Shown here: positions 3,001 through 19,410 of the stretch, in pieces | How positions within the stretch are numbered: position 1 is the first letter of the stretch | Layout: the number at the start of each line of letters is the position of its first letter | Virus record (IMG/VR): IMGVR_UViG_3300001869_000005 | Location: 1-64,000 of that record | Source of the DNA: a virus | Lineage: Duplodnaviria > Caudoviricetes | Strand: one strand, 5' to 3' | Length of the DNA: 64,000 nt | Made by a program: the position numbers and the translations under genes | The notes under the pieces: generated by a model | Seen by the model: the letters and a program-made list of their open reading frames with translations, nothing else | Told to the model about the DNA's origin: nothing | The model's database searches: none

Positions 3001-3516
3001 ATCTTTATAATGAAATCTCCAGTAGACTCCTTCCCACATATGAGGAAAATCCTAAATTCTATTAGCTCTTTTGGTACCTTCAATCATTTCTGCCAACATA
3101 ATTGGAGAATAATTCAAGTAAAAATACATTAGTCCCGTAATCCACTCACCATCAGACTCTCTAACCATACCTACCCAACACCGATCTCTTTCTTGTCTAA
3201 TCCACTTACCAAATTCAGAGTTAATATTAGCATTTGGTTTTAGATGGGTCAATACTCCATGTTTCTTGTAGTACAATGCAGTAGGCCTAAAGTAGTCCAT
3301 ATCTTCGAGAATATGTGGGTTAACTAAGTCAACTATAATTCGTCCTTTAGAATCTCTAGGTCTATCTTTAGCATAACCTCTTTTAGGATCTATTAATGTT
3401 CTTATAAAGGGAACATTATTAATAAAGTCTAACAACTAATCAGACGCCTCTTGTGGTAAAGAATTCAGTAATTCATCTGTGATTTCTGTCTAATATTTAT
3501 TAACCTATATATTCAT
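91..3516 (-). CDS. terL: Terminase large subunit, TAG-recoded, intein-containing (1141 aa precursor, about 760 aa spliced)
   Basis: ORF fragments 91-309, 352-630, 652-1008, 1225-1620, 1687-1983, 2221-2484, 2515-2718 and 3052-3435 share one frame and end in TAG except the final TAA. Motifs: Walker A-like SRGKSKS, Walker B ILIEEMG, motif III G-TAG, nuclease SADPYDDD, C-terminal GNFDRVSA. Confidence 0.95.
1333..2475 (-). mobile_element. Intein (381 aa) with LAGLIDADG homing endonuclease, inserted in terminase ATPase motif III
   Basis: Begins CVCKGTKV after extein MLG; ends ANNIITHN before +1 Thr (TAGDD); block B SKDHP; LAGLIDADG motifs LIGMLIGDGS and LLSGLYDTDGT; five in-frame TAG codons. Confidence 0.93.
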
Positions 3517-3518
3517 GT

Positions 3519-4073
3519 TTAATCATTTAATGAATCTTCAAATACACTTTTCTACCCCTAGCCCCGCATTTTTCCAAACTCTATAAGTTCAGAAGCAATC
3601 GCTTTTTCTGCAGCATCTAAGTCTTTAGCTAGTGATGGAACTTGTTTAATTGTTGCTGTAATTACATTTAAAGTATAGATAGGTTTACCCCTATCATCTG
3701 TTTCATCTAATTTAATATCTCTTAAAAGAGCTCTTAATTTATCAACGGCACACTTAGTATCTTCTAGTAGTAACACAGACATAGACTTAAAACTAAGGAA
3801 AAACTCCATAGCTTCTTGTACCTATTTATCTGGTTTCCAATTATTTGGTAAACCTTCTCCTTCTTTTATAGCATTACTTCTTAATTGATTATCTGTAATA
3901 TATTGATAATCACTTCTTGGATCACACATAAAATATATATAACCCAATTCTAGTAATGCTTTTTCCTTGTTAATTGTTTTATCTCTGTTCCAGAGTTGTT
4001 TAAAGGGTTTTAACATCAAAGCCTCTGGTTCTATTGAAATCTTATAACCCTCGTATTTGAAAAGTTTAATCAT
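3519..4073 (-). CDS. Conserved crAss-like protein upstream of terL (possible small terminase subunit), TAG-recoded, 184 aa
   Basis: ORFs 3822-4073 and 3558-3809 are in frame, joined across TAG; true TAA at 3519-3521 next to the terL ATG. Confidence 0.8.
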
Positions 4074-8845: not shown

Positions 8846-9748
8846 TTATTTTTTCTTTTTTAAATAAAACCTATCATATACTTCAAATGGTTTACCCGCA
8901 CCTAATGGTTCTGCTAATCCTTTAGTATCCCATATATCATAATATGATATATAATTTCCTTCTTTGTCTTTTCCTTTACTTACTTGGTAATTTCCTAATT
9001 CTCCTAACCCACTTCTAGAATTTTTATTAGTCGTTGGAAAAGGATAATATCTAGGAATATTATATTTGTTATCTGATATTTTTGTTATTGGTGCAGAATT
9101 TGCTGTCTTGTTTTTATTTTCTTCATAAATGTCCGTTCCTCTTTCTATCCCATACTATTTTATTAACTCATTCTTATATGCAGTTTTATAATCTCCTCCA
9201 GTTTTTATATCTATTGAATCTATATAATTAGATAAATCTTGCATAAATGGTTCTATTTTAGGATCATTTATAGAAATATAAGTATTTTTATCATTACTGT
9301 TATTTGCAGGTTTATACTTACTTTCAGACAATAAATCATTTACAGGATTATAACCACCATAATAACTTCTTAATTCACTGTATGTATTTATATTACTTTC
9401 ATTCATTGGTCCTGTAAAAATACCTTGTAAACCTTGTGTAAGAGGGGATAATAAGTTTCCTTTAAAATCTTTTCTAGTGGTTATAGGTTCATTGTGATTC
9501 ATAATCTAGTAAGGTAATTTTTCCTATGACTGTTTGTGTTCAACAATCTTTTTAGGAGCAACTAGTTTAATCTAGGTATTATCCTACATCATCATTGTAT
9601 CATTAGGTCTCTATAGATTTAACTTCAATCCACCACCCTCAGCAAAACTGTTGTAATGCTATTTTATATCCTATAGAGAACTCATTCCACCCTTCACATA
9701 AATTCCCATCAATTCAGATCTTTGTGACATACTTAATTTATCCCACAT
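8846..9748 (-). CDS. TAG-recoded hypothetical protein (300 aa), possibly virion-associated
   Basis: ORF 9155-9502 extends in both directions through TAGs; begins MWDKLSMSQRSELM...HYNSFAEGG and ends GNYISYYDIWD...GKPFEVYDRFY. Confidence 0.75.
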
Positions 9749-9773
9749 ATATTTTTAATTTAATTTGTTCATT

Positions 9774-9800
9774 AAAAAAGCCCCTCTTAGTAGAGAGGCT
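9774..9800 (-). terminator. Rho-independent terminator closing the DUF559 unit
   Basis: Minus strand AGCCTCTCT-ACTA-AGAGGGGCT followed by a T tract. Confidence 0.75.
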
Positions 9801-9806
9801 GATTAG

Positions 9807-9929
9807 TTATTTCCAATTGATGTTATCCTTTTTCACATTCCATACATGAGCTGCCATTGTTTTACCTTCACTATTTTCAAGGGACATAAACTCATATACT
9901 TCTTTTTCCTTCTTTACTTTCTTCTCCAT
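9807..9929 (-). CDS. Small hypothetical protein (40 aa)
   Basis: MEKKVKKEKEVYEF...; lies between the nuclease and the terminator. Confidence 0.45.
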   Translation of the reverse strand: MEKKVKKEKEVYEFMSLENSEGKTMAAHVWNVKKDNINWK

Positions 9930-9935
9930 TTGTTT

Positions 9936-10391
9936 TTAAATAAAATCGTTTAACTTCTTAAATACTTTCATGAGATCTTTCATCTCATCATTAGTGTATC
10001 TGAGTACTCTAAATCCTTGTTGTTCTATAAGTAGAGTTCTATACGCATCTTTGATTATTTGTTCAGGAGTAGTATGGTATCCACCGTCAATCTCTATGAG
10101 AACTTTAGTTCCTTTAATTTGAAAATCTGCAATATAGAATTTCTCAATCAGATTTCCTTTATATAAGTAGATTATCTTCTGTTGTTCTAAAGGAATCTTA
10201 AACTTAGAGAGAAATTCATAGAATACCTTTTCAGCTCCTGTAGAATCATTTAATAACTTTTGTCTATTCTCATTTGCTACTCTTTTAAAAAATGTATTAT
10301 TATCCTCCTTAGGAATACTAGTAGTTTGATTTCTCGCACCCGTAAGACTTCCTTTCTTTAACTTAAAGAGTTTTACTTTTAATTCACTCAT
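9936..10391 (-). CDS. DUF559/Vsr-like endonuclease, copy 2
   Basis: FYIADF..IEIDGGYH..DAYRT..GFRVLRYTN. Confidence 0.9.
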   Translation of the reverse strand: MSELKVKLFKLKKGSLTGARNQTTSIPKEDNNTFFKRVANENRQKLLNDSTGAEKVFYEFLSKFKIPLEQQKIIYLYKGNLIEKFYIADFQIKGTKVLIEIDGGYHTTPEQIIKDAYRTLLIEQQGFRVLRYTNDEMKDLMKVFKKLNDFI

Positions 10392-10400
10392 TGTTTTTTA

Positions 10401-10919
10401 TTACTTACTTAAAGTACGATTGATTTTAAGTTTCAAAGAAACCTTATCAGATATTTCTTCATTAATAAATCTTAGTACTTTATATCCATTTTTATTTAAA
10501 TCTACTGTTCTATTATAATCTTTTTCCATCTGTTCTTTTTGAGAATGATATCCCCCGTCTATTTCAATTATTAAATTTGCGGAAGGTATATAAAAATCTG
10601 CAATATAAAACTTTGTAATTTTATTATTCTGATGAATATACACAATCTTCTGAAATTCAAAATGAATGTTTTCCTCCTTTAAAAAAGTATCAAAGGTTTT
10701 TTCTGATTGGGTTCTATTTTTTAGAAGATCTTTTTTAAATTTCTTAGCAGTTGCTATATAAAATTTATTAGATTCTAAATCTTTACCAGACAAATAATAA
10801 GGATCTAATAATTTATTTTTAGATGCTTTTACTTTTTTAGTTCTTTTTTCTGCTCTTTTTTGTGCGGCTTTTTCAAATTTTAATTTTATTGCTACGTTAT
10901 CATAGTTTTTCTTATTCAT
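10401..10919 (-). CDS. DUF559/Vsr-like endonuclease, copy 1, with Lys-rich N-terminal extension
   Basis: FYIADFY..IEIDGGYH..DYNRT..GYKVLRFIN. Confidence 0.9.
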   Translation of the reverse strand: MNKKNYDNVAIKLKFEKAAQKRAEKRTKKVKASKNKLLDPYYLSGKDLESNKFYIATAKKFKKDLLKNRTQSEKTFDTFLKEENIHFEFQKIVYIHQNNKITKFYIADFYIPSANLIIEIDGGYHSQKEQMEKDYNRTVDLNKNGYKVLRFINEEISDKVSLKLKINRTLSK

Positions 10920-10924
10920 AATAA

Positions 10925-11252
10925 TATATTATTATAATTTCTTATGTTTATTCTTTCTTTTAGATCTAATAGATATAGAAGGTCCTAGCCAATTTAATGA
11001 CTAAGCGAGTATTAAACTCTTATATACTTTAACTTTCACAAACTGCGTCTTAATACATTTCTGTATGTATACCCAATTAAGCTCTTATGTCCTCTACCAT
11101 TCAATTGCTAGGTGGCTAAAGTTTGCTTATATTAAAGCTTTTGTCCTATCAGTTAATCTCCACTAAATGTGTACAAACCGATTTAACCCTCTCATGTAGT
11201 TCCTTCTAAGACTAGACTGCTGGGTGAATGTAATTAGCAAATTCATTACGGA
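10925..11252 (-). ncRNA. Candidate ~330-nt non-coding leader RNA upstream of the DUF559 pair
   Basis: Lies between a promoter and the first ATG; no convincing ORF; hairpins ATACA-GAAA-TGTAT, TTAGTCA/TGGCTAG, GAGT/ACTC. Confidence 0.5.
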
Positions 11253-11257
11253 CAGTA

Positions 11258-11288
11258 CAAAGGTAATAAAAAAAATGATATAAACAAA
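11258..11288 (-). promoter_or_regulatory. Bacteroidota sigma70-type promoter
   Basis: -33 TTTG (11285-11288), 19-nt spacer, -7 TACCTTTG. Confidence 0.8.
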
Positions 11289-11321
11289 CAAATAAGCAAT
11301 TTATTTATATCAATATAAAAT

Positions 11322-11714
11322 TTATATTATTTTGTGTAAACAAAGCCGCCGTTCAATTCGAGTTAATGTAAATCCTAAATCTTTTAAACCCCACATATAT
11401 GTTTTCTTTCTTCTGTTATCATCCCACCCAATACACAAGTGATTTATCTTATTTTTATGATCTACATTATTTATAAAATCTATTATACAACTCTTTGCCC
11501 ACAAGAGAGATTTTAATCCATCTCTACCAGTTTGTTGATTCCATTCATATCCATTTTTGCGTTTACCAATCCAGAATACTACATTCCAATAGATTAGGTT
11601 ACTATACCCTTCACATTCAAATGTTAGATTGAGTAATTGTCCAAATTCATTTTTGGTCTTATAGATTACATCATCCCAATCATTTTTAGAAGAATTGATT
11701 TGATATTGATTCAT
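11322..11714 (-). CDS. Hypothetical protein with its own promoter (moron-like)
   Basis: 130 aa ORF flanked by two promoters. Confidence 0.7.
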   Translation of the reverse strand: MNQYQINSSKNDWDDVIYKTKNEFGQLLNLTFECEGYSNLIYWNVVFWIGKRKNGYEWNQQTGRDGLKSLLWAKSCIIDFINNVDHKNKINHLCIGWDDNRRKKTYMWGLKDLGFTLTRIERRLCLHKII

Positions 11715-19002: not shown

Positions 19003-19376
19003 GGGCCTGATTGGATTAGATCCTAAAGGATTTGGTATAAAAACATGCAAAGGACTCATTCCTTTAACAAAAGTGAGAAAACAATAAAAGGCAAATCTAA
19101 TATGATTTCCTTCGGTTTTGCAGCACCTCGTGTGTATGCAATGGCTTCTTGAGCTTAATCCCGACGAGTTGATAACTAACTTTGGAACAGAATAGTTATA
19201 GAATTCCTATGGTTCTTAGCCCTTAAAACTAAGTGGTGGAAAGATGGAGAATTCTTCATCCCCAGTTTAAGTAACTTTTTCAAAGACAACATAGAAAAGA
19301 ACTATTTAAAATCTAAGCATGTATAATTTTTATATTAAAACTATAGGAGACCGCGGTTCGAGCCCGCGCAGGTCCA
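19003..19376 (+). ncRNA. ssrA: tmRNA with predicted tag (A)GKSNMISFGFAAPRVYAMAS
   Basis: Acceptor GGGCCTG/CAGGTCC-A with G3.U70; T arm CGCGG-TTCGAGC-CCGCG; 3' GGAGAC; tag ORF 19090-19152. Confidence 0.9.
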
Positions 19377-19410
19377 CTTAATTACTTAATTATCAACAAC
19401 ATGATTATAT

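Follow-up and report, generated by a model that had tools for sequence, protein, structure and literature searches.

The promoter, leader and nuclease genes

The stretch of DNA analysed here (the window) comprises 64,000 nucleotides of viral DNA and is the first 64 kb of IMG/VR record IMGVR_UViG_3300001869_000005, a genome of 97,972 bp that is judged complete. Its layout is of the crAss-like phage type. This report concerns a unit on the minus strand of the window, in which a promoter and a long leader without open reading frames (ORFs) are followed by two tandem nuclease genes, a small ORF and a terminator, and it addresses how the leader RNA and the nucleases are related. The unit contains the following features.

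11258-11292, minus strand: Bacteroidota-type promoter found by pattern scans, with TTTG at -33, a T-rich spacer (N19-23) and the -7 element TACCTTTG at 11265-11258
10920-11257, minus strand: ORF-free leader of 338 nucleotides, between the -7 motif and the ATG at 10919
11066-11053, minus strand: hairpin with a GAAA loop (ATACA-GAAA-TGTAT) in the leader, followed by ACGC at 11048-11045
10401-10919, minus strand: nuclease 1, 172 amino acids, DUF559/Vsr-like, with a Lys/Arg-rich N-terminal region (Pfam 3.3e-18, 66.0 bits)
9936-10391, minus strand: nuclease 2, 151 amino acids, a DUF559/Vsr-like paralogue (Pfam 4.8e-14, 52.6 bits)
9807-9929, minus strand: ORF of 40 amino acids
9779-9800, minus strand: intrinsic terminator at the end of the unit, with 9 pairs and a T-run

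The promoter belongs to a motif family within the window. In the pattern scan, the -7 motif TTAYCTTTG and the T-rich spacer recur at 11745-11737 and 8237-8229. Near-identical copies of the promoter are present at 11768-11737 and 8260-8229, each 23-27 nucleotides ahead of an ATG. Unlike these two copies, the promoter of the unit precedes 338 ORF-free nucleotides. Being of the Bacteroidota -33/-7 type, it is missed by a scan for the sigma-70 consensus. The promoter is kept (~2075-2107) in the nearest relative of the window, an IMG/VR contig of 98,996 bp referred to here as L004 (the same record as L083, L122 and L128).

The leader contains no credible ORF in the standard code or with TAG read as glutamine. 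Open frames reach 50-57 codons at most, and the one of 57 codons begins inside the promoter. The GC content is 0.33 over positions 11000-11300 and 0.22-0.26 in the flanks.

The curated Pfam cut-off for DUF559 (PF04480) is 20.6 bits. The two nucleases are 42% identical over 119 amino acids, and both contain FYIADF and IEIDGGYH. The acidic and histidine residues D108, E119, D121, H125 and D134 (numbered as in nuclease 1), which fit the catalytic pattern D ... E-x-D ... H, do not vary across an alignment of 15 sequences that includes both window proteins (alignment A1). Nuclease 1 alone matches the structures 3hrl (7.4e-8) and 3r3p, the I-Bth0305I domain (3.8e-4), in the PDB. A profile built from the nucleases together with their relatives matches 3hrl at 1.4e-14, 3r3p at 3.3e-6 and also the nuclease domain of PvuRts1I, so that generic DUF559 ranks above I-Bth0305I. 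Both proteins are therefore predicted from sequence to have a Vsr-like fold. No known RNA-binding module is found in them by Pfam, which detects Vsr-like families only; apart from this domain they have a basic tail. Exact copies of nuclease 1 are present in four contigs.

The long late genes on the minus strand of the window are open only when TAG is read as an amino acid, and each contains 16-51 TAG codons. The two nuclease genes contain none in 323 codons, where about 6 would be expected at the 1.4-3.5% TAG of recoded genes. The TAG-free frames fit early expression by the host polymerase before suppression, or import from phages with the standard code. The nuclease shared by L161 and L006 (L006 2531-2968) needs read-through of one in-frame TAG to stay open; with the TAG-free copies of the window, the lineage therefore exists in both code states.

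The 40-amino-acid ORF has an orthologue of the same length and with the same ends (MEKKVKKEKEVYEF...VWNVKKDNINWK) in L004 at 3036-3158, and it has no protein family match. The terminator search returns 2 such sites where 0.3 are expected. The terminator of the unit is kept in L004 at ~3507-3530 with one loop change.

Most of this description had been given in a first-pass annotation made from the DNA letters, and it stands. That annotation named a host promoter at the head of the unit, about 330 nucleotides without a convincing ORF in either code, a leader that is less AT-rich than its flanks and contains a GAAA tetraloop hairpin, two tandem paralogous Vsr/DUF559 endonucleases, and a 40-amino-acid ORF and a terminator behind them. 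Its statement that the nucleases are made without suppression also agrees with the zero TAG count; the next gene downstream (8846-9748) requires eight read-throughs.

A structured leader RNA in crAss-like phages

The comparison of leaders started from the sequence ahead of those DUF559 genes in viral contigs that are closest to the window nucleases. The homologues in crAss-sized contigs (L003, L005, which is cr106_1, L006, L016 and L022) share a layout in which a TAnnTTTG promoter and 300-470 bases free of ORFs precede the nuclease gene, whereas the more distant homologues are mostly without such a promoter and leader. A long conserved block is common to L005, L006 and L016. A 19-base pattern from this block, AACTAATAATATATAAMCG, is present in 55 IMG/VR contigs, mostly of 75-105 kb. 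All 55 carry one element that consists of the promoter, a hypervariable 5' part, a conserved core of ~104 nucleotides, variable hairpins and the 3' block AGGUCUCUUUAUA. The TAnnTTTG motif lies 49-279 nucleotides upstream of the conserved block in 47 of 48 distinct sequences. Because this sample was gathered via one conserved block, it is biased toward variants that carry the block.

Two cultured phages contain the RNA, one of them as a variant. In Kehishuvirus 'tikkala' the element is present and unannotated, and it scores 112 bits with the covariance model of the family (R1). PhiCrAss001 (L185, MH675552.1) has the same promoter and an unannotated, 340-nucleotide ORF-free leader before gp3 (628-998). 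The core of this leader (~838-912) is clearly homologous to the family and does not contain the AU-rich 19-mer. At other loci the RNA is followed by small, unrelated ORFs, some of them gp3/gp4-like, and tRNA genes (transfer RNA genes) are found downstream of the leader locus in the window and in relatives. An Rfam search of the leaders of six relatives at E up to 1 returns no match, and full-text literature searches aimed at such an RNA find no description. The family is apparently undescribed so far.

The core structure of the family was derived from the alignment and counted on 29 distinct sequences. Helices Pa, Pb' and Pc form a three-way junction, to which two long-range pairs are added. 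Pairing is present in 90.5% of cells, and 13 of the 15 pairs change on both sides. There are 116 double-changed cells, compared with 41.9±4.7 in shuffles, and 0 of 500 shuffles reach 116. The covariation score is 0.635, compared with at most 0.197 when the partners are slid. Some pairs are G-U (for example, 12 U-G at one pair), so the structure exists on this strand only, that is, as RNA. The S/S' pair is GC in 13 sequences and CG in 12. A closing helix, GAGAU/GUCUC, is 95.6% paired and shows no covariation; it stays unproven because it is invariant. The 14-nucleotide loop of the Pc hairpin (alignment A7, columns 40-57) has two forms, GAAAGUAAAGGAUA and GAGAAUAAAGGGUA, in which three positions switch jointly (A/G, G/A, A/G). 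This joint switch suggests a non-canonical or tertiary contact.

A role of the RNA as the Y-RNA partner of a phage TROVE protein was considered and rejected. A TROVE protein is mentioned for PhiCrAss001 (PMC8375218). In our searches it is found in PhiCrAss001 and cr106_1 only and is absent from the genomes of the window, L004, L141 and 'tikkala'.

The leader of the window is most closely related to that of L004. The L004 orthologue of nuclease 2 (2423-2869) is 82% identical in DNA and 81% identical in protein to that of the window, and the same promoter and an ORF-free leader of ~315 nucleotides are present. Nuclease 1 is absent from L004, so its leader directly adjoins the nuclease 2 orthologue. 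The two leaders align with islands of identity (nhmmer E 0.0036) and are far more diverged than the gene behind them. A pairwise consensus fold contains 41 pairs, 13 of them kept by changes on both sides, which is suggestive; the signal is weak with two sequences only.

Two DNA-pattern scans of IMG/VR for leaders of the window type found nothing related beyond the L004 contig. The first returned 43 matches, all of which, except that contig, are chance matches as judged by hidden Markov model (HMM), and the second returned that contig alone. A scan of JGI metagenomes with nuclease 2 revealed no further relative, and GenBank phages searched by blastn, with the unit and with the leader, gave zero matches. 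Leaders of the window type therefore number two in the searched collections.

In the window leader, the following parts would correspond to the structure of the family.

11077-11119, minus strand: core junction from the descriptor match, with helix Pa TTAGC (11119-11115) paired with GC[T]TAA (11082-11077), helix Pb' ACC (11113-11111) paired with GGT (11098-11096), and AGAGG (11095-11091)
11045-11066, minus strand: S/S' element, in which the C after ACG (ACGC, 11048-11045) matches G 11094 of AGAGG by the S / ACG-S' rule of the family
10972-10986, minus strand: 3' block AGGACCTTCTATATC, equivalent to AGGUCUCUUUAUA at the end of the family RNA and locally similar to L005 and L151 in the corresponding position

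Several results weigh against placing the window leader in this family. Neither R1 nor the HMMs give it a significant score (R1 reaches at most 4 bits on the right strand), so that its membership depends on a homology chain through L004, a post-hoc descriptor and synteny. The invariant AU-rich block, AACUAAUAAUAUAUAAACG, is missing in the window and in L004, and the GAAA hairpin takes its place. By folding energy the leader does not stand out from shuffled sequence (z = -0.17), and the L004 leader gives no signal either (z = -0.78). In addition, the BLAST similarity of the window leader to family members does not exceed that of shuffles, the similarity of the 3' block to L005 and L151 is not significant alone against shuffles, and Rfam gives the leader no match at gathering thresholds, nor at E up to 10 in the window. 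The missing scores, the BLAST result, the folding energy of the window leader and the missing AU-rich block would suit a reading in which the 338 nucleotides are a drifting 5' untranslated region or the remnant of a lost gene, with a family resemblance that is convergent or due to chance.

We consider this reading improbable. The homologous leader of L004 fits the HMM of the short-hairpin subfamily, which was built without L004, at E 2e-4 and exactly at the expected place. The strict structure descriptor also matches the L004 leader, with 0 matches in 30 genome shuffles. A descriptor that was relaxed post hoc has a single match on both strands of the 98-kb genome of the window, and this match falls within the leader (11119-11045); the shuffles yield 0.05 matches per genome. 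Two Pa pairs have both bases exchanged in L004 relative to the window and still pair (T-A and G-C; C-G and A-T), and the S/S' pair is C with G in L004 and G with C in the window. The stem of the GAAA hairpin differs in L004, with one pair changed on both sides, and still pairs. Indel lengths between the two leaders are not divisible by three. Both genomes share one arrangement: promoter, leader, DUF559 gene, and tRNA genes downstream. A host-type promoter directly upstream of an ORF-free leader, at the head of an operon and near a tRNA array, is also the setting of the family.

From these comparisons, the window leader is probably a divergent member of a promoter-proximal RNA family of crAss-like phages. 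The support for its putative structure comes solely from comparison with relatives. The AU-rich block defined the sample and may not be necessary to define the family; PhiCrAss001 is also without it.

Occurrence of the nuclease genes behind the RNA

The relationship between the RNA and the nucleases was counted on 51 family loci with at least 1 kb downstream, which form 31 lineages when clustered at 90% identity or higher. A DUF559 gene is present behind the RNA in 10 loci and in 10 lineages; the remaining 41 loci have none. In the largest mixed cluster, one of nine members carries the gene. When present, it is always on the same strand as the RNA, starts 120-475 nucleotides after the conserved block and is the first ORF where checked. 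From the side of the nuclease, R1 detects the RNA at three loci among the best 80 viral DUF559 loci, and L004, detected by HMM, is a fourth.

Presence and absence of the nuclease gene between conserved flanks is seen in two comparisons. The window has nuclease 1 and L004 does not. In L161, compared with L136 and L167, a clean insertion of ~430 bp with the nuclease gene lies between a conserved ribosome-binding stretch and the next gene. The occurrence pattern is that of a selfish gene that repeatedly fills one slot, not that of a two-part machine. A group I intron with a homing endonuclease was rejected as an explanation of the unit: there is no Intron_gpI match at E up to 10, and the ORFs on either side are whole genes, each missing separately from L004.

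The first-pass annotation had proposed a ribonucleoprotein, possibly heterodimeric and RNA-guided or RNA-inhibited. In such a dedicated system, the leader would guide, scaffold or inhibit the DUF559 nucleases. The RNA is directly upstream of the nuclease genes and co-transcribed with them, and its 5' part is hypervariable, as in a guide. The closest relatives of nuclease 1 in IMG/VR (L003-L006 and L016) are all behind long promoter-driven leaders. A DUF559 gene right behind the RNA in about a third of the RNA lineages is above the expectation for random insertion, so some functional tie is possible, such as a target inside the RNA gene or shared regulation; this is a point against a purely selfish origin of the arrangement. 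A dedicated RNA-nuclease system is nonetheless very improbable. Four fifths of the RNA loci (41 of 51) are without a DUF559 gene, most DUF559 loci (all but ~4 of 80) are without the RNA, and nuclease genes are gained or lost as clean indels between near-identical RNAs. The proteins are small (151-172 amino acids) and have a Vsr-like domain and a basic tail without a known RNA-binding module.

The unit also differs from known systems of this kind. HEARO/IscB and TnpB with its omega-RNA (OMEGA systems) resemble it in that a non-coding RNA of a few hundred nucleotides adjoins a small nuclease gene in a mobile context. In OMEGA systems, however, the RNA and the nuclease strictly co-occur and the proteins contain RuvC (and HNH) together with RNA-binding parts, whereas in the window family the two occur independently and the protein is a bare Vsr-like domain. 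Rfam, searched at E up to 10 in the window and up to 1 in six relatives, gives neither a HEARO match nor one to any other omega-RNA model, and no RuvC or HNH effector is present, as Pfam finds Vsr-like families only.

The earlier proposal therefore survives in part. Its non-coding RNA is very likely a real structured RNA. Of the leader that was expected to be conserved and to co-occur with the nucleases, conservation is found at the level of the family and co-occurrence is not (10 of 51 loci). The idea of an RNA-associated nuclease is not supported, and a heterodimer is not required since a single nuclease is the rule, in the nearest relative and at every other locus. A link to the neighbouring strand-switch region was not found.

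A further alternative is that the nucleases are domesticated phage weapons, used for host DNA degradation or competitor exclusion and kept at the first-expressed locus. The host-type promoter and the TAG-free frames predict expression before the code switch. Two intact tandem paralogues are kept with their catalytic residues present, and restriction enzymes such as PvuRts1I are among the relatives of the fold. Close relatives of the phages, however, carry the genes sporadically and in an indel-type pattern, which marks selfish genes rather than a conserved phage function, and L004 manages without nuclease 1. We regard a weapon role as unlikely.

The preferred reading is that the unit consists of a structured leader RNA and of free-standing, homing-type selfish genes that inserted behind it and are not partners of the RNA; we hold this to be likely. 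A promoter for the host RNA polymerase would drive a structured leader RNA of ~300 nucleotides, which would head an early or accessory operon of crAss-like phages that usually runs into a tRNA array. The two DUF559/Vsr-like genes would have inserted between the leader and the downstream genes and would use the promoter of the leader. Their products are predicted to be protein-only, site-specific DNA endonucleases. In a co-infection, related genomes without the nuclease would be cut near the locus and the gene would be copied in during repair of the break. If the proteins are active, it is reasonably likely, judging from sequence, that they cut nuclease-free alleles near the locus and spread by repair. 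The tandem paralogues of the window are best read as two homing genes stacked in one slot.

This reading has precedents among phage endonucleases. The structure 3r3p is the catalytic domain of I-Bth0305I, the founding EDxHD member and a proven phage homing endonuclease with a Vsr fold, which is a homodimer with a footprint of ~60 bp (Taylor et al. 2011, PMC3239194). Like the window nucleases, I-Bth0305I is phage-borne and has an extra N-terminal region ahead of a Vsr-like catalytic domain, the domain matched by the profile at 3.3e-6. It differs in that it sits in a group I intron in recA, whereas the window nucleases are free-standing behind an RNA leader, and it reads IEVNGVYW where they read IEIDGGYH; their best sequence match is the generic DUF559 protein (3hrl). 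Free-standing homing genes beside conserved sequence that mark exchange boundaries between phages are well described (PMC10448857). The seg and mob genes of T4 and the homing endonuclease genes of ICP1 (Barth et al. 2023, PMC10448857) are, like the window nucleases, small, intergenic, patchy among close relatives, located beside conserved sequence and provided with upstream promoters. They belong to the GIY-YIG, HNH or T5orf172 families, whereas the window nucleases are DUF559/Vsr-like and their conserved neighbour is an RNA element instead of an essential protein gene.

Neighbouring genes and meaning for crAss-like phages

The neighbourhood of the unit contains the following features.

11322-11714, minus strand: gene of 130 amino acids upstream of the unit, absent from L004
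8846-9748, minus strand: recoded gene of 300 amino acids downstream of the unit, absent from L004
7782-7857 and 7483-7555, minus strand: suppressor tRNA(CUA) and tRNA-Met, downstream of the third copy of the host-type promoter (8260-8229)
19003-19379, plus strand: full-length gene for a transfer-messenger RNA (tmRNA; Rfam 73.4 bits), with the ARAGORN tag peptide GKSNMISFGFAAPRVYAMAS

The stretch from the strand switch to the tRNA genes is a hot spot of gene gain and loss. In place of the genes that it does not share with the window, L004 has ORFs of 58 and 95 amino acids within the unit. Searches of IMG/VR and of phages with the flanking proteins returned no relatives. TAG-recoded genes flank the pair of suppressor tRNA(CUA) and tRNA-Met genes on both sides. 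A tmRNA gene is thus carried by a TAG-recoding phage.

Sequencing runs that contain the DNA of the window are peat metagenomes and one brine metagenome, and the sequencing-run listing includes no RNA run that contains the stretch. The run contigs matched to the unit are fragmentary and provide no new leader variants; the L004 type and a third relative are visible among them. The third relative is present in brine run X4 (window 9771-9861), has 4 differences in 91 bases and contains a Zn-ribbon gene directly after the terminator, as in L004. Brine run X4 also contains stretches that are identical to the window.

The leader RNA could act in cis on its own transcript (for example, on elongation, stability or processing), or it could be a small RNA released from the 5' end. 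No intrinsic terminator is present between the RNA and the next gene in the loci inspected, which favours a leader. The put RNA of phage HK022 is a promoter-proximal phage leader RNA of ~70 nucleotides with two stem-loops. It provides a functional analogy only, as a structured RNA right after a promoter of the host polymerase at the head of a phage operon. The family RNA differs from it in length (180-320 nucleotides) and in its three-way junction, and there is no sequence or structure match. By this analogy, an antitermination role of the leader RNA family is a guess.

Tentatively, the leader may represent an undescribed class of structured RNA that is made by the host polymerase at the start of an operon in many crAss-like phages, both Steigviridae-type and more distant. 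The RNA itself would have a role, for instance in processive antitermination, in processing the tRNA operon or in trapping a host factor. A lineage of DUF559 endonucleases would home to the RNA gene or to the junction just downstream, and the RNA gene would be a landing pad for selfish nucleases. We put this extended proposal at somewhat less than even.

Among the viruses of the human gut, crAss-like phages are the most abundant. Rfam contains no conserved regulatory RNA of these phages, the literature search found none either, and a structured, covarying RNA is now seen in dozens of their genomes. Cultured phages carry it ('tikkala', and as a variant PhiCrAss001), so it is directly testable. 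For the window, the idea of an RNA-guided nuclease gives way to an ordinary explanation. Nucleases of the Vsr/DUF559 type repeatedly occupy the slot behind the RNA and probably behave as free-standing homing genes, which bears on DNA exchange among crAss-like phages.

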